A stretch of 64,000 nucleotides of DNA from positions 98,077 through 162,076 of the forward strand of contig JAYSUD010000005.1 in the NCBI GenBank assembly GCA_043719295.1, given 5' to 3'. This stretch comes from a bacterium. Lineage in GTDB: Bacteria; Patescibacteriota; Minisyncoccia; Phycocordibacterales; UBA918. A program made the position numbers and the translations under genes. A model generated the notes under the pieces. That model searched no databases. It had not been told where the DNA came from and saw nothing but the letters and a program-made list of their open reading frames with translations. Shown piece after piece: positions 993 to 55,574 of this stretch (positions within the stretch are counted from its first letter, which is position 1; each line of letters starts with the position of its first letter).

Positions 993-1332
993 ACATAATT
1001 ATATTAGCACGGGTTCTAAGACGGGAATCTCTTTCCCTACGGGAATGGTATGCCTTTTGGATGGATTGGTACGCTTCGCTTCCAATCCATCACAAAAGCC
1101 TTTCGAGTCCCTTTTTGGATGTGTCCGACACATCCAAAACTCTCGCTCGTAACATAAAATGGCCGTTGCTGTGGCAACGACCATTTTATTAACTGGTCAC
1201 GAGTTACTAACTATAATTGTTCGCTTCGCTCCAATTCAAGTAAGTACTCTCGACCCCGCCTCGACTGTCGCAAGCGACATGTCTATGGCTCGCAGTTAGG
1301 CACGGAAGCAAAGCAGTTTGCTTCCTAAAAAG

Positions 1333-1375: not shown

Positions 1376-1688
1376 CGCGAGAGACGGGACTCGAACCCGC
1401 AACCTCTGCCGTGCACTGAATTCATTATTTTCATAATGGCGTGGACTATATCTTTACCATGAGTCTTTCGACTGTTAGGTACCCCGGTATCTAGTCTCTA
1501 CGGCGCCCCCATACTATGTGTTTTTGTATATGGGGTTCCCTCGGTATTCGCATATCTAGTAGTGCTTATTGGGCACTATTTCAAACGACTTAGCCTTCAC
1601 CGATATCCCGGAGAGTTTCAATCCTAACTTTCGAAAGGAAAGCTGCACGTCTACAGGGCAGCGCTCTAACCAATTGAGCTACTCCCGC
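1376..1688 (-). tRNA. tRNA-Asp(GUC) interrupted by a ~239-nt group I-like intron in the anticodon loop
   Basis: 5' half (1653-1688; acceptor GCGGGAG, D-arm GCTC-AATTGGTTA-GAGC, anticodon stem CTGCC) and 3' half (1376-1413; GGCAG, variable AGGTT, T-arm GCGGG-TTCGAGT-CCCGT, acceptor CTCTCGC, discriminator G) are both canonical; splicing at 35/36 gives loop CTGTCAC and a T-arm identical to bacterial tRNA-Asp; 5' exon ends in U and intron ends in G; alternative junction 33/34 would give UGC. Confidence 0.6.
1414..1652 (-). other. putative group I intron (no internal ORF) inside tRNA-Asp
   Basis: 239-nt intervening sequence between canonical tRNA halves; boundaries U|...G| fit group I rules; size matches known tRNA group I introns. 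Confidence 0.45.
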
Positions 1689-2395: not shown

Positions 2396-3409
2396 TTATC
2401 TTCCTAAATGCTTTAATACTTTAAGATACAAATCCTCGACAATTTTTTCTTGTTCTTTTCCCATTTTTGAATAGTGATCTAAACCAGGCGCGGCATTAAT
2501 TTCAATAATCTTAAAGTTATCAATCTGTTGTTTTGTGATATCACCTTGTACTAAAATATCTACTCCGCATAAACGAAGTCCCATGTCTTTTGTAAGTGTA
2601 ATCGCTATCTTTTTAAATGAACTGTGGAGGGCTTTTGTTACATCAACTGATATGCCTCCGGTTGAAAGGTTTGCATTATCAAGTAAAGATACTGCTGTAC
2701 CTTTGGGTAACACAGAAGACGAGTCAAGCTTTAGTCGCTTAAGTTTTTGCAAAATTCGTGCATCGTTTGTTTTTATAACAGTATTGCGTTCTGCTTTTTC
2801 AAATGCTCTTTGTTTTTTTTCTAAAAGCTCAAAGATAGATGACTTTCCATCACCAACAATTGAAAGCGGAATCCGTCTGTATGCAGAAATAATTTCAGTA
2901 TCAAGAACTACAATCCGATAGTCGTCGCCTTGTATGTATGACTGTACCTGTACGAGATTATCAAAGGTAAAAATTTTAGTCACAGCTCCATAAAATTCTT
3001 TTTTGGTATGCACGAGCGTAACCCCAGAACCCTGACTTCCACTATTGGGTTTTACAATAACCGGAAAGCCAATCTTAACCGCATGCCTATACGCTGCATC
3101 AATATCTTCTTTCGGTGCACCGATAGTAACTCCCCAATGTTTTGAGAAAAATACCTTACTGTTTGGGATAACGGGGTACCCCAATGACTTCATAAAGAAG
3201 GTTGCATAGTCTTTGTCTTTTGCAATATCAGATGCCCCAACTGGATTAAGATCAAGCGTGTTAAAGCGGAAGTAGGAACGCTTTCCATTTTTAAAAGTGA
3301 TCTGTCCCGCAATTCTCCATGTAGGTTCTAAAAGAACCGATGCGCCAATAGAGGGAGCAATTTTTTTGATAATGCTCCCCAAAATAAATGATTCCCGTTT
3401 CTTTTTCAT
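2396..3409 (-). CDS. ATP-grasp ligase (RimK/glutathione-synthetase/cyanophycin-synthetase-like)
   Basis: ATP-grasp signature region (VIVKPNSGSQGSGV, EINAAPG) in a 337-aa ORF. Confidence 0.6.
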   Translation of the reverse strand: MKKKRESFILGSIIKKIAPSIGASVLLEPTWRIAGQITFKNGKRSYFRFNTLDLNPVGASDIAKDKDYATFFMKSLGYPVIPNSKVFFSKHWGVTIGAPKEDIDAAYRHAVKIGFPVIVKPNSGSQGSGVTLVHTKKEFYGAVTKIFTFDNLVQVQSYIQGDDYRIVVLDTEIISAYRRIPLSIVGDGKSSIFELLEKKQRAFEKAERNTVIKTNDARILQKLKRLKLDSSSVLPKGTAVSLLDNANLSTGGISVDVTKALHSSFKKIAITLTKDMGLRLCGVDILVQGDITKQQIDNFKIIEINAAPGLDHYSKMGKEQEKIVEDLYLKVLKHLGR

Positions 3410-3498
3410 AGCCGGATTACTGTAGCATTATTATTAGAATTTAAAAAAGTCTTCAATCCTTGACGTACTCTTCCCCGGAGAGCACTTCATCGACAGAC

Positions 3499-3525
3499 GA
3501 AAACCGCCAGAGGCGGTTTTCTTTT
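3499..3525. terminator. rho-independent terminator (AAAACCGCC-AGA-GGCGGTTTT) downstream of tRNA-Met
   Basis: 9-bp GC-rich stem followed by a T-run. Confidence 0.6.
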
Positions 3526-3526
3526 G

Positions 3527-3599
3527 TGTCGACGACAAGAATTGAACTTGTGACCTTTTCTTTATGAGTGAAATGCTCTACCAACTGAGCTACGCCGAC
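3527..3599 (-). tRNA. tRNA-Met(CAU), elongator-type (could alternatively be a lysidine tRNA-Ile2)
   Basis: hand-folded cloverleaf: acceptor GTCGGCG/CGTCGAC, D-arm GCTC-AGTTGGTA-GAGC, anticodon loop CTCATAA, T-arm ACAAG-TTCAATT-CTTGT, discriminator A. Confidence 0.75.
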
Positions 3600-3600
3600 A

Positions 3601-4272
3601 TTATTTACTTGCTTGTATGAGACCTAAAATTTTGTACCTCAATGTTGTACCACGAGCTACTCGTAATGCCAACACGCCGTAATAGGAATCATGATTTTCA
3701 TATATCTTTTTCGGACGGCCTTTGAGGAAAATAACTTTGTTAAATTGCTCTTTCGGGATTGATAGAAAATTAGACCAGAAAGTCATAATGACGCATTCAC
3801 GAGGTTTATGTATCTCTGATACATAAATATATGGTCGAAAATCAGACCTTTGCACCCCTAGTTGCTCAAACCAATTCCGAGCAAAAAGTATAACTGAAGG
3901 GTCAGAATTAACAAGAGCAGTACCACTCCCTCCTGCTTTAACACCCTCACCCCAGTACAACCCAATACCTAACATCAGTCTGTCACGTTTCGTCATTTTT
4001 CCAATTATAGCCTTTGCTTTATGCTCTTGTTCTAGGATATTTTCAATCTTTTTACGTCTATTTGATTCTGCTCCCATCATTCTACCTCTGTTTCCAGCTT
4101 TAATTTGTTGCAGTGTAAGTATTTCTCTTTGCGAATCAGAAAGCACTAAATCTCTACACCAAATACTCACTGAACTACTGGATACCCTAAGTCTCTTAGC
4201 TATCGCTTTAATACTCAGCCCATCAGTACGTAGATTTCTTGCAAGTAGTTTTTCTACACTTTTAGCCATCAA
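3601..4272 (-). CDS. HTH + degenerate LAGLIDADG-like (LYWGEG) homing-endonuclease-related protein
   Basis: N-terminal HTH (LSIKAIAKRLRVSSSSVSIW); C-terminal GIGLYWGEGvK...TALVNSD...ILFARNWFEQLGV parallels the I-CreI-type LAGLIDADG alpha-beta-beta-alpha core; stop codon abuts the tRNA-Met 5' end with a 1-nt gap; paralog at 46912-47569. Confidence 0.5.
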   Translation of the reverse strand: MMAKSVEKLLARNLRTDGLSIKAIAKRLRVSSSSVSIWCRDLVLSDSQREILTLQQIKAGNRGRMMGAESNRRKKIENILEQEHKAKAIIGKMTKRDRLMLGIGLYWGEGVKAGGSGTALVNSDPSVILFARNWFEQLGVQRSDFRPYIYVSEIHKPRECVIMTFWSNFLSIPKEQFNKVIFLKGRPKKIYENHDSYYGVLALRVARGTTLRYKILGLIQASK

Positions 4273-5757: not shown

Positions 5758-5995
5758 ATAATTACATTTATAACACACTTTTCAGATTATGCAACAATTA
5801 CCGTGAGTCAATTAGACATCTCGAATTTTAAGTGGTATTCTCTTTGTGCACTATTGAATATAGCGGGGTGAGAAAGCGAATACATGGAGCTTTCGTAAGA
5901 CTTTGACTGCTATTTTAAAAGGCTTGACCGAATTAAAATAGCGGCAAAGTGTAAAGATCCTGTAAGGATGAGGAGTGATGGGAGTATAATAATAT

Positions 5996-6066
5996 AGCGG
6001 GGTAGAGGAGTGGTACCTCGGGAGGCTCATAACCTCCAGACCCCGGTTCGAGTCCGGGCCCCGCAA
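5996..6066 (+). tRNA. tRNA-Met(CAU), initiator-like
   Basis: anticodon loop CTCATAA; 1:72 mismatch (A:A) and A11:U24, both initiator hallmarks; T-arm CCCGG-TTCGAGT-CCGGG. Confidence 0.65.
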
Positions 6067-6075
6067 CAAACATAT

Positions 6076-30650: not shown

Positions 30651-30762
30651 GTACGAATTAGTGTAGCAAAATTCTGGAAGATGAGGGAATTTCTACCCTT
30701 ACAGGGTCAGTACCCCGATTGGATATTTTAGTTCGCTTCGCTCCTAAACTATCTCAATCTGG

Positions 30763-30875
30763 CTTCGAATCCCTCCGCACGTGACATTTAGTCACGTGCT
30801 CATCTTCCGCGAACAAAATATGCGCCCTTGTGGGGCGCTATTTTGAATCGCGGAAGATGAGGGATTCGAACCCTC
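30763..30875. repeat. extended inverted repeat: inverted copy of the 3'-terminal ~25 nt of tRNA-Ser(ACU) (30763-30775 + 30799-30811) facing the tRNA 3' end (30849-30875), with two nested hairpins
   Basis: reverse-complement comparison of the flanks. Confidence 0.7.
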
Positions 30876-30937
30876 GAAGGATTTAACTCCTTGGCAGTTT
30901 AGTAAACTGCTGCTTTCAGCCACTCAGCCAATCTTCC
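30851..30937 (-). tRNA. type II (Ser-like) tRNA with anticodon ACU (loop TTACTAA)
   Basis: 87 nt; acceptor GGAAGAT/ATCTTCC, 3-bp D-stem GCT/AGC, long variable arm (AAGGA-GTTAAA-TCCTT), T-arm GAGGG-TTCGAAT-CCCTC, discriminator G; anticodon stem GCAGT/ACTGC. Confidence 0.65.
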
Positions 30938-31151
30938 AATATATTCGCTTCGCTCAAATTGTAACCCTACGGGAGGATTAACTTCGTGTCTGCCACGCAG
31001 ATGAATCTGCGGTAAAATATGAAGAAGTTCATATTGAACCCACGGAGCCAATCTTCCACAGGCGGGGGTATTATAGACTGAAATTGGTTTGTTTCAAAAT
31101 ACATAGTTCGGTGCGATAATGGTGTCCTGAATTCCTTATCTCTACTTATAT

Positions 31152-34909: not shown

Positions 34910-35046
34910 GTTACATGTCGAAGCTGGATACTATGAAAATGCATCAAACCCAAGGCATTGCCTTGGGTTTGATGGTTGCGGAGGGAATTTCGGTCATTAC
35001 ATGACCAGTATCTGTTGTCGCTCTTTTTCCAAAAGAGCTGGCAACA

Positions 35047-35142
35047 GCTTCGAATCCCTCCTTTTCTCGCAAATGCAACAAAACCCAAACAAAGCTTTGG
35101 CTTTGTTTGGGTTTTGGCATTTGCGGAAAAGGAGGGATTCGA
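35047..35142. repeat. ~45-bp near-perfect hairpin whose outer arms are the tRNA-Ser(GCU) 3' end (35125-35142) and its inverted copy (35047-35064)
   Basis: reverse-complement comparison; inner arms cgcaaatgcaacaaaacccaaacaaagc / gctttgtttgggttttggcatttgcg. Confidence 0.7.
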
Positions 35143-35209
35143 ACCCTCGAGGGTTATTCACCCTACTTTCTTAGCAAGAAAGCACAATCGGCCTCTCTGA
35201 CACTTTTCC
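35124..35209 (-). tRNA. tRNA-Ser(GCU), type II
   Basis: 86 nt; acceptor GGAAAAG/CTTTTCC, anticodon stem CTTTC/GAAAG loop TTGCTAA, variable arm AGGGT-GAATA-ACCCT, T-arm GAGGG-TTCGAAT-CCCTC; D-arm irregular in hand fold. Confidence 0.6.
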
Positions 35210-35226
35210 TTATTCGACATAATACG

Positions 35227-36216
35227 TTATTTCAAGTACCTTTTCAAATGCTTTGGATTATGAGTTCCAATTTCTTTCATGTACCGAGCAACATCGTGGA
35301 TTGCATCAATACGAACATTGGTTCCACTACATGTGGCAGTACTCCCGAATCGATGCAGAATAAATAACACCTCGTTTCGAAGCGGTTTTGAAGCGGAAGA
35401 AAAACATAATTTCTTATATTGATACTCCTTACCTCCTACTTTATATTTATGGAGATACACTGAACCATCTGTATCCATTAATCCTCGTAGACATGCCGAG
35501 GAATATTCTTCATTTTCTAAAATCCATGCAGGGATATGTACCTGCTGTTTCACTTTGTTACCTATAACGAGTCCTAGGGATACAAGAAAGATGACTGCCT
35601 TTTTCCGTGCCAAAACAATACTATGTGCATGTGCATCTTTACGAACATACACACTTGGCATCACCCCAAATAATTTTTGCATCAATGATTTAACAAACAA
35701 CCCATATTCAAAATCATCAACAGAATGTAAAGTGACCGACACCTGATACTGTGTCAGTCCTCCATCGCCAAGCATGATGCCTATAAATTCAGCAAGTTTA
35801 TTATTTCTCACTGGTATACAAATATTTTTTGTAAAAAAATCTGCTATTTCAGTTTTTCCGCCATTATCAAACCATCTACGCCAACTCTCTTTGCGCACTG
35901 TTTCATTCACAGGAACTCTGCCATACTTTTTCATTACTGCGGAAGAACCTGCTAAACCAGCCCGACTAGTATGCTCATAGCGATTAATTTGACAGACTCT
36001 TGGGACAAGCATATTGGCTTCTTTTGCGAGCAAAACTAGACTCTCATATGGCATCATAGTTTTACCTAACTTCCATCCACGAATTGTACGGTCCGAACAA
36101 TTGCAAATTTTTGCCATACGACCTACTGATACTTTATCGCATGCTTTTGACATCCACAGGGCTTGTTTTTCTATCGAAGCAAACTTTGCTTTTTTATCTA
36201 CTAAAGAATCTATCAT
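35227..36216 (-). CDS. LAGLIDADG homing endonuclease (two-motif) with N-terminal HTH
   Basis: motifs EFIGIMLGDGGL and LRGLMDTDGSV; HTH near the N-terminus; directly upstream of tRNA-Ser(GCU). Confidence 0.8.
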   Translation of the reverse strand: MIDSLVDKKAKFASIEKQALWMSKACDKVSVGRMAKICNCSDRTIRGWKLGKTMMPYESLVLLAKEANMLVPRVCQINRYEHTSRAGLAGSSAVMKKYGRVPVNETVRKESWRRWFDNGGKTEIADFFTKNICIPVRNNKLAEFIGIMLGDGGLTQYQVSVTLHSVDDFEYGLFVKSLMQKLFGVMPSVYVRKDAHAHSIVLARKKAVIFLVSLGLVIGNKVKQQVHIPAWILENEEYSSACLRGLMDTDGSVYLHKYKVGGKEYQYKKLCFSSASKPLRNEVLFILHRFGSTATCSGTNVRIDAIHDVARYMKEIGTHNPKHLKRYLK

Positions 36217-46688: not shown

Positions 46689-46762
46689 CCGCCCTTAGCT
46701 CAGTTGGTTAGAGCATGGAGCTTATACCTCCAGGGTCCCACGTTCGAGTCGTGGAGGGCGGA
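46689..46762 (+). tRNA. tRNA-Ile(UAU)
   Basis: acceptor CCGCCCT/AGGGCGG, D-arm GCTC-AGTTGGTTA-GAGC, anticodon stem TGGAG/CTCCA loop CTTATAC, T-arm CCACG-TTCGAGT-CGTGG, discriminator A. Confidence 0.7.
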
Positions 46763-46911
46763 CAAAAATTGAATTCATATACAAAAATGGTCATTGGTTC
46801 GCACCACAAGAGTATTTCCGTTTTCTAATTCCTTTCAGTCATAAAAAAACTAGGTCAGTCCAAGAGGTCAGACACAGTATATCTCTTTTATATTTTGAAA
46901 AAAATCCTAGT

Positions 46912-54887: not shown

Positions 54888-55280
54888 GGGGATGCTAGGC
54901 ATCGACGGTTAGTCCCTGCTGTTGTGTGCAGTGTCAAAAGAGCATGTGGATTTGTAAAAATACATGCAACACTTACGTGCTAAGAATAACGTAGTAAGTC
55001 CATACTTCTCGAAGTTGGATCTCGTACCCGCTCTCGCGTAACCCGCGACGGCCGGTCGACATTGTTTCTCTTGAGGTTTCATAGAGAGAATTGCAGTGTA
55101 ATAAAAATGAAACTTGAAAGTAGTACCCCTTCCTAGTACTACTTAGACCTTCTTAGGAATCGAGAGTGTACGATTTTGTTTATCTTATACGTCCACCCTT
55201 TAAATCAAAAGAAATACTACACACTGTAGACGCGCGATAGCAACCTAATTCGGACGTGGATTCAATTTCCACCATCTCCA
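54888..55280 (+). ncRNA. ssrA: tmRNA (ssrA), one-piece
   Basis: 5' GGGGATGCTAGGCATCGACGG (conserved TCGACGG); 3' tRNA-like end GTGGA-TTCAATT-TCCAC + CATCTCC + A; G3:U70 alanine determinant; candidate tag ORF (A)KNNVVSPYFSKLDLVPALA* at 54979-55041. Confidence 0.8.
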
Positions 55281-55574
55281 CAATTTAAAAATCTGCACAC
55301 ATTTTTCGTGGGCGATTTTTATTTGTGGAGATGGTGAACAGGCAAACTGCTTTGCCTGTGTGAAATTGAATCAAGCGGAAGCATGTTGCCTTGCAACAGC
55401 TGAGCTCGGGGAGGAAGTTCTTAGTAATTTAGGAACGAAGTGAACTTAAGTACTTAGAAACTTGACCCTTCAATTTCCACTATCTCCACCGACACATAAA
55501 ATCACTCAGATCCATGAGTGGTTTTATGTTTTATTTGGCACGGTGACCCACGGAAGTATGTCATACTTATATAT

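Follow-up and report, generated by a model that had tools for sequence, protein, structure and literature searches.

Can a serine tRNA with adenosine at the wobble position be a regular component of bacterial decoding? The question is raised by a 64,000-nucleotide stretch of DNA, referred to here as the window (contig JAYSUD010000005.1, positions 98,077 to 162,076), from a member of the Patescibacteriota, or candidate phyla radiation (CPR), which carries at 30851..30937 on the minus strand a type II tRNA gene with the anticodon ACU. This anticodon lies outside the canonical serine set (NGA or GCU), yet it is complementary to the serine codon AGU. The original prediction left the choice between a recently mutated and possibly inactive paralog of tRNA-Ser(GCU), a dedicated reader of AGU and a suppressor-like variant. 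Among these options the dedicated AGU reader fits best: we consider it likely that tRNA-Ser(ACU) is a functional chromosomal isoacceptor, belonging to a family conserved in the CPR, which decodes AGU alongside tRNA-Ser(GCU). What the analysis shows is the integrity of the gene, the conservation of A34 across genomes, compensatory covariation, the occurrence beside a GCU paralog and a codon usage rich in AGU.

Structure and integrity of the gene

Of the six RNA genes that ARAGORN predicts in the window, one is a tRNA-Ser(act) at 30850-30937 (-). The Rfam tRNA model RF00005 matches 30851-30937 (-) over its full length (model positions 1-71) with 56.4 bits (whole-window E = 1.8e-9) and with zero non-canonical pairs flagged, so that the ARAGORN and covariance scoring suggested earlier as a check gives no sign of a pseudogene. 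As read from the sequence and from the family alignment described below, the acceptor stem GGAAGAU/AUCUUCC (7 bp) is followed by U8 and G9, the D-stem GCU/AGC (3 bp) is accompanied by G13.A22, the anticodon stem GCAGU/ACUGC (5 bp) closes the 7-nt loop UUACUAA (30899-30905), the variable arm of 17 nt (CAAGGAGUUAAAUCCUUC) contains the 5-bp stem AAGGA/UCCUU, and the T-arm GAGGG-UUCGAAU-CCCUC has a 5-bp stem; the discriminator is G73 and CCA is not encoded. The anticodon occupies 30901..30903 (-), with U36 at 30901, C35 at 30902 and A34 at 30903, where the plus strand reads T. The canonical cloverleaf with a 3-bp D-stem, long variable arm, perfect T-arm, G73 and loop TTACTAA had been described correctly in every detail, with the strand left unstated.

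The serine identity set established in Escherichia coli consists of G73, G1-C72, G2-C71, A3-U70 and a 3-bp D-stem with C11-G24, and seryl-tRNA synthetase (SerRS) recognizes its tRNA independently of the anticodon. In tRNA-Ser(ACU) the features G1-C72, G2-C71, A3-U70, C11-G24, the 5-bp variable-arm stem and G73 are all legible, and the identity positions are invariant across the family alignment. Charging with serine is therefore expected, since SerRS ignores the anticodon and all of the known E. coli identity features are present and invariant. A suppressor-like variant finds no support, as ACU reads a serine codon and the body has serine identity features. Judged by its sequence, tRNA-Ser(ACU) is an ordinary serine tRNA in all respects but the 'forbidden' wobble base.

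Conservation of A34 in the CPR

One genome per species (GTDB) was scanned with the anticodon arm AGCAGCAGTTTRCTAAACTGCC, permitting R at position 34, and A34 was found in 20 of the 21 loci obtained, an A:G ratio of 20:1 that is valid for this fixed arm sequence only. All 20 are called tRNA-Ser(act) by ARAGORN, and the sole G34 locus is a tRNA-Ser(GCU) of Cytophagales (L008) with the same body. Most of the metagenome-assembled genomes (MAGs) concerned are labelled as CPR (Saccharibacteria, Magasanikbacteria, Parcubacteria, Nomurabacteria, Kaiserbacteria and Paceibacteria). A few others bear the labels Gammaproteobacteria, Patiriisocius or Acidimicrobiales; at least two of them carry tRNAs with exact counterparts in CPR MAGs, which points to wrong labels or contaminated bins. 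In an alignment of 17 ACU genes with the Cytophagales GCU gene (alignment A1, 18 sequences), all 450 of the 450 cloverleaf pair cells are standard and 12 of the 25 pairs are changed on both sides, values reached by none of 500 shuffles, and in the variable-arm stem all five of the five pairs covary.

A second sample was drawn from metagenomes by a scan seeded on the D-arm of the CPR-type tRNA-Ser(GCU), and is thus independent of the ACU tRNA. This seed is less specific and also matched tRNA-Ser(GGA) and tRNA-Ser(CGA) of other bacteria, leaving 53 usable loci of the 120 listed. A tRNA-Ser(ACU) is present in 21 of these 53 tRNA-Ser(GCU) loci, at a distance of 17 nt to 6.6 kb from the GCU gene; it is found in 14 of the 26 loci that extend 700 nt or more to either side and in four of the six that extend 3 kb or more, and no second GCU tRNA stands beside the seed in these loci. 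Several of the partner tRNAs show compensatory variants of the D-stem (GCU/AGC, GAU/AUC, GGU/ACC, GAC/GUC and GCC/GGC) as well as variants of the anticodon stem (GCAGU/ACUGC, ACAGU/ACUGU, GCGGU/ACCGC and CCGGU/ACCGA). The loop UUACUAA with its A34 is kept in all 21, some of which have diverged bodies, and the pattern indicates that purifying selection acts on A34.

Relationship to tRNA-Ser(GCU)

The partner in the window, a CPR-type tRNA-Ser(GCU), is located at 35124..35209 (-), 4.3 kb from the ACU gene (ARAGORN, 35123-35209; Rfam, 44.9 bits), and has a D-stem mismatch. The T-arms of the two genes are identical, as had been noted, and the ACU gene has the higher Rfam score (56.4 against 44.9 bits). 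The identity of tRNA-Ser(ACU) is 72% to this neighbour, 86-90% to other CPR ACU tRNAs, with 90% for one from Parcubacteria, and 86% to the Cytophagales tRNA-Ser(GCU). On account of these pairwise identities the ACU and GCU serine tRNAs are old paralogs. The idea of a recently mutated, possibly inactive paralog is refuted by these identities together with the covariation and the recurrence of A34 in 20 of 21 genome loci and in 21 metagenome loci.

The canonical tRNA-Ser(GCU), as represented by the Cytophagales gene, shares with the ACU gene the common type II body, the 3-bp D-stem, the long variable arm, G73 and the T-arm, and its anticodon arm is identical save for position 34. The difference is that A34 replaces G34, and ACU pairs in Watson–Crick fashion with AGU only and cannot wobble to AGC. 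In sequence the ACU lineage looks like a standard bacterial tRNA-Ser(GCU) body carrying G34A, and the CPR tRNA-Ser(GCU) appears to be the more divergent of the two serine paralogs. The tRNA-Ser(GCU) at 35124..35209 is presumed to read AGC, and AGU by wobble. In the CPR-type tRNA-Ser(GCU) of the window and of loci L005-L023 the D-arm, GUCAGAGUGGUCUAUCGU, is unusual and the mismatches of its stem are conserved.

ACU tRNAs in phages

A scan of IMG/VR that combined a serine D-arm with ACU and left the anticodon stem free returned at least 116 tRNA-Ser(act) genes (ARAGORN), with at least 82 distinct sequences, in at least 120 phage contigs. Among the matches listed, these genes lie mostly within tRNA arrays, adjoining Thr(tgt), Leu(taa), Arg(tct), Gly(tcc) and Asn(gtt), and tRNA-Ser(gct) accompanies tRNA-Ser(act) in only one of 120 loci, which is CPR-like. 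The same matches comprise at least 35 acceptor stems and at least 35 anticodon stems, the acceptor, anticodon and T-stems are paired at 99.8%, 95.9% and 99.3%, respectively, and G73 is found in 82 of 91, A73 in seven of 91 and an encoded CCA in 52 of 91. The phage tRNAs thus resemble the window gene in anticodon, in type II architecture and in an identity of up to 85%; they differ in standing in tRNA arrays, in often encoding CCA, in almost never having a tRNA-Ser(GCU) partner and in being without the tRNA-linked repeat of the CPR described below.

Type II ACU tRNAs are also carried by two isolated phages, Salmonella jumbo phage 7t3 and Erwinia phage Hallingskeid, where the annotation is just tRNA-Ser, and phages SE_PL, Munch, PHA46 and fENko-Kae01 give the same match in BLAST. 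In cyanophages S-SKS1, S-PM2 and S-CREM1 the anticodon is GCU, and a BLAST search of isolated phages with a low-GC phage-type ACU tRNA returned cyanophage GCU tRNAs only. The ACU type II tRNA of phage 7t3 (L145, 1501-1591) has A73 in place of G73 and an encoded CCA. In bacteria A73 is a discriminator of the leucine or tyrosine type, and the amino-acid identity of this tRNA is for this reason not certain. For chlorella virus ATCV-1, a tRNA-Ser(ACU) is listed in the table of a review (PMC4810235).

In the phage arrays, which were selected for a serine tRNA carrying A34, the Asn, Asp, Tyr, His, Phe and Cys tRNAs keep G34, with two Asp(atc) exceptions among the matches listed. Other A34 calls near tRNA-Ser(act) are Asp(atc) in L064 and L065, Leu(aag) in L025 and Ser(aga) in L133, and Asp(AUC) is itself another split-box anticodon regarded as absent. 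Among the matches listed, Arg(acg) and Ser(act) occur together in at least eight phage arrays.

Proposed decoding of AGU and state of A34

In the scheme that we favour, tRNA-Ser(ACU) would be transcribed from its own promoter up to an intrinsic terminator and would be matured by RNase P and 3' trimming, followed by the addition of CCA. SerRS would charge it by way of the long variable arm, G73 and pairs of the acceptor and D-stems, leaving the anticodon unread. A34 would stay A because TadA is probably absent: the CPR apparently lack tRNA-Arg(ACG), having tRNA-Arg(GCG) instead, and inosine is reportedly unused by some deep-branching bacteria (Shulgina and Eddy, PMC8629427). The anticodon would then form Watson–Crick pairs with AGU, and the neighbouring tRNA-Ser(GCU) would cover AGC, and AGU by wobble. 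Expression, serylation, an unmodified A34 and AGU-only decoding are what we infer for this tRNA. Within the window, ARAGORN calls no tRNA-Arg, and the comparison of AGU with AGC proposed earlier gives 307 against 85 in the long open reading frames (ORFs), a ratio of 3.6 that exceeds the U/C ratio of every other two-codon box (1.3 to 2.7).

Measurements on engineered tRNAs bear on this scheme. An orthogonal tRNA with the ACU anticodon decoded AGU at 9.4% and AGG at 0.36%, with AGC and AGA below detection (PMC11066159), and overexpression of Ser-tRNA(ACU) improved growth parameters of E. coli (bioRxiv 10.64898/2026.05.15.725136). These constructs have the same anticodon as the window gene and are translationally active, AGU-selective and non-toxic or beneficial; they are, however, laboratory constructs in a TadA-containing host, whereas the window gene is natural, conserved and found in a lineage reportedly without the inosine system. 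Serine would be special as the sole NNY split-box amino acid whose synthetase ignores position 34, and G34A would cost it no charging for that very reason. The pattern of the phage arrays, in which the other split-box tRNAs have G34 and serine has A34, fits this suggestion. On balance we lean towards the broader view that an unmodified-A34 tRNA-Ser(ACU) is a normal, selected decoding component across much of the CPR and in many phages, and that A34 in the Ser/Arg box is not prohibited by the ribosome but is permitted where the anticodon plays no part in recognition by the synthetase and where TadA is missing or inactive on the tRNA.

Several points weigh against an unmodified, dedicated AGU decoder, besides the restriction of the genome-scan ratio to one arm sequence. 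G34 already reads AGU, and the selective benefit of an additional A34 tRNA is unexplained. In the pooled CPR loci the AGT/AGC ratio is 1.6, which is not above the other boxes; codon bias, at 3.6 in the window but 1.6 in these loci, was rejected as a general explanation, and codon demand alone therefore fails to explain the retention of the gene. The probable absence of TadA from the CPR is derived from a literature statement on tRNA-Arg(ACG), and in hosts that contain TadA the tRNA-Ser(ACU) may be deaminated, by analogy with an engineered split-box A34 tRNA. Finally, two independent Logan assemblies of the same organism (SRR23617205 and SRR22198340), located by an exact-protein look-up of both neighbours of the tRNA gene, are 100% identical to the window, but their contigs end at 30801 and start at 30922, and neither spans the anticodon. 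This last point, together with the repeats that flank the gene, could be taken to favour a consensus error at position 34 or a recent inactive copy of tRNA-Ser(GCU). The breaks could have been induced during assembly by the tRNA-linked repeats, and an assembly error at 30903 is very unlikely because A34 is conserved across genomes: it occurs in 20 genome, 21 metagenome and at least 116 phage loci from unrelated assemblies. The helices are perfect and show compensatory covariation across the family, and the gene outscores a GCU gene to which it is only 72% identical. An artefact or a dead gene is accordingly a most improbable explanation.

A functional tRNA whose A34 is converted to inosine by a TadA-like or other deaminase deserves more weight, although we hold it to be unlikely. 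ICU would read AGU and AGC, and weakly AGA, and would duplicate the GCU tRNA. Such a conversion did occur when an engineered two-codon-box A34 tRNA was tested in E. coli (bioRxiv 10.64898/2026.05.15.725136), and the phage arrays that combine Arg(acg) with Ser(act) place tRNA-Ser(ACU) also where TadA is expected. For the CPR, however, the TadA substrate tRNA-Arg(ACG) is reportedly missing (PMC8629427), and ICU could place serine at AGA, which is frequent here (117 of 16,453 codons in the window). The loop recognized by TadA is U33-A34-C35-G36 (UACG), from which the U33-A34-C35-U36 of tRNA-Ser(ACU) departs at position 36. A weaker argument is that a six-frame search of the 64-kb window, which cannot speak for the genome, found no deaminase motif of the CDA type (H[AS]E...PCxxC). 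It is less probable still that the tRNA is kept mainly for a role other than the reading of AGU, such as resistance to an anticodon nuclease or toxin directed against tRNA-Ser(GCU), gene exchange with phages or the donation of serine to a non-ribosomal process. This would accord with the replacement of tRNA-Ser(GCU) by tRNA-Ser(ACU) in phage arrays, with the acceptor stem GGAAGAT common to the window tRNA and several phage ACU tRNAs (84-85% identity), and with the proposal that phage tRNAs evade host tRNases by changes in the anticodon loop (PMC10264068). The CPR gene, in contrast, is chromosomal, lies among cellular genes and is consistently paired with tRNA-Ser(GCU); its body shows no departure from an elongator tRNA, and its similarity to the phage tRNAs is no higher than that to the Cytophagales GCU tRNA (86%). 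Moreover, we know of no nuclease that targets tRNA-Ser(GCU).

Relation to known A34 tRNAs

The original prediction held A34 tRNAs other than Arg(ACG) to be essentially unknown in bacteria. This agrees with published statements, in which A34 is universally missing from the Ser-Arg box and phage tRNAs are likewise without such 'prohibited' genes (PMC8007984), and in which seven split-box ANN tRNAs are called universally absent, split-box ANN genes in GtRNAdb are described as sporadic and the CPR are unmentioned (bioRxiv 10.64898/2026.05.15.725136); it fails for the CPR and for phages. The tRNA-Ser(ACU) family is a clear exception to the universal absence of A34 from the Ser-Arg box. A literature search, with incomplete coverage and with a prior mention elsewhere possible, found no paper on tRNA-Ser(ACU) in the CPR or Patescibacteria, and the main text of Morgado & Vicente (2019) makes no anticodon-level statement.

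The closest natural parallels are the tRNA-Thr(AGU) of Mycoplasma, with an unmodified A34, and the tRNA-Leu(AAG) of Lactobacillales, Oenococcus and Streptococcus, in which an encoded A34 is likewise conserved within the lineage. Some natural A34 tRNAs of the four-codon boxes occur in organisms without TadA (PMC3711424; PMC11066159; bioRxiv 10.64898/2026.05.15.725136). In those boxes misreading is silent and the A34 gene usually replaces the G34 gene, whereas the ACU gene belongs to the split Ser/Arg box and always coexists with a G34 gene. A conserved A34 tRNA contradicts an explicit generalization of the field and offers natural material for the open question of the absent ANN anticodons. If A34 is indeed unmodified, the missing ANN anticodons would become testable in natural systems; the family would allow tests of decoding by unmodified A34, of misreading of AGA and AGG as a barrier, and of the anticodon-blindness of the synthetase as the factor that sets which 'forbidden' anticodons are possible. 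Annotation pipelines and censuses that drop tRNA-Ser(ACU) as suspect would miss a real isoacceptor.

Predicted expression signals and genomic context

A sigma-70-like promoter, TTGAAA-16-TATAAT (11 of 12 matches), is predicted at 31070..31097 (-), approximately 130 nt upstream of tRNA-Ser(ACU), by a consensus scan that returned four sites against 1.0 expected; if functional, it would give the tRNA a long 5' leader. On the other side, 12 nt past the 3' end of the tRNA, a hairpin resembling a bidirectional intrinsic terminator (GCGCCC-loop-GGGCGC, with T-runs on both strands) lies at 30822..30838, and forms the centre of a palindrome with 29-nt arms (inverted repeat I1) that extends into the 3' end of the tRNA.

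The surroundings of the gene consist of genes for Ser_hydrolase, RecQ, PilM, a ComF-like protein and transporters, and of a LAGLIDADG ORF; no integrase or phage gene was found within about 5 kb, and the tRNA is not in a tRNA array. The LAGLIDADG-like ORF at 35227-36216 (-) (329 aa; PF14528, E = 1e-8) is free-standing, lying outside any detected intron, and ends 18 nt upstream of tRNA-Ser(GCU).

A tRNA-linked structured repeat

Partial duplicates that flank the gene had been taken as favouring a mobile or duplicated copy. The duplicates are real: the 3' end of tRNA-Ser(ACU) recurs as a direct copy at 30676-30688 and as an inverted copy at 30799-30811, and part of its 5' end recurs in the leader at 31040..31058 (-) (TGGAAGATTGGCTCCGTGG compared with TGGAAGATTGGCTGAGTGG; direct repeat D7, 89% identity). 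The 3' copies are the arms of the closing helix of a structured repeat unit of about 135 nt at 30675..30809 (-), which follows the terminator-like palindromic hairpin downstream of the tRNA, has the reverse complement of the last 12-20 nt of tRNA-Ser(ACU) at its beginning and these nucleotides in direct orientation at its end (covariance model R1, 111.4 bits; fold z = -6.1; covariation in the family). A shorter variant lies downstream of tRNA-Ser(GCU) at 34973..35071 (-) (R1, 49.1 bits, E = 1e-10; fold z = -4.6), another unit detected with R1 follows an unrelated tRNA with a group I intron at 1016-1145 (-), and a partial unit is found in the window at 5897-5970 (+). In the units at 30675-30809, 34973-35071 and 1016-1145 the arms copy the end of the adjacent tRNA, once inverted and once direct. 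Because the repeat also follows tRNA-Ser(GCU), the intron-containing tRNA and tRNA-Ser in dozens of CPR loci, and with ordinary cellular genes as neighbours, the mobile copy is unsupported; the flanking duplicates are part of a general tRNA-linked repeat of the CPR and are uninformative on the mobility of the tRNA.

The core of the repeat reads, in order, ATTCGAA, stem a, UUGAG, stem b with a GAGCGAAGCGAA loop, CCAA, stem a', RUACUG and a hairpin with a YGUAR loop. RNAalifold folds the units into a structure of 26 pairs, of which 14 are compensatory. With a threshold of E < 1e-8, model R1 detects 62 copies of about 100-135 nt, distributed over 40 CPR sources, and in 58 distinct sequences 95.8% of the cells are paired and 21 of the 26 pairs are compensatory, which none of 500 shuffles matches. 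The repeat occurs also in loci L003, L009, L013, L018, L019, L021, L022 and L061 and in many of L149-L263, and tandem arrays of two or three units are seen. R1 has no match in 941 kb of phage loci, and no Rfam family matches the repeat at E up to 1. Counted in the orientation of the tRNA, to which the alignment was fitted, G.U pairs (39) exceed A.C pairs (20), a weak indication that this is the transcribed strand.

The repeat might be an RNA that is transcribed with the tRNA and cut out by tRNA-processing enzymes, or else a REPIN-like element targeting the ends of tRNA genes. In locus L013 a Y1_Tnp ORF of the IS200/RAYT-like type (3022-3696 (+); PF01797, E = 4.7e-16) lies 145 nt after a unit at 2680-2877, which bears arms of the Ser(ACU) type though it is 2.5 kb from the tRNA; tblastn finds no other Y1_Tnp copy in the window or in any fetched locus, so that the RAYT link is that of one locus. 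A hammerhead-like reading of the 'CUG-hairpin-GAAA' segment was discarded, since the core residues that it requires are missing, and a retroviral-type primer-binding site was rejected because the complementarity follows the gene trailer and not the mature CCA end. With its strong covariation, this undescribed element merits a study of its own.

A further partial copy of a tRNA 5' end, ATAGCGGGGTGAG, lies at 5855-5867, upstream of the tRNA-Met at 5996-6067. This copy and that at 31040-31058 each lie about 100-130 nt upstream of their own tRNA, with fragments of the repeat core in between, which suggests an upstream counterpart of the downstream repeat.

Other RNA genes in the window

The intron-containing tRNA gene lies at approximately 1383-1688 (-) and is not reported by ARAGORN; its group I intron is matched by the Rfam family Intron_gpI at 1422-1669 (51.1 bits), the 5' exon being GCGGGAGTAGCTCAATTGGTTAGAGCGCTGCCCT... 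and the 3' exon ending in ...GGTTGCGGGTTCGAGTCCCGTCTCTCGCG. At 46689-46763 (+) a tRNA-Ile with the anticodon UAU (64.5 bits) stands in place of the usual lysidine-dependent CAU. The same tRNA-Ile(UAU) is found at 7880-7953 of L018 and 193-266 of L021, and also in L153, L157, L174, L185 and L265, which suggests decoding of AUA without TilS. A tmRNA at 54888-55283 (+) (107 bits) has a long and unusual predicted tag, AKNNVVSPYFSKLDLVPALA.

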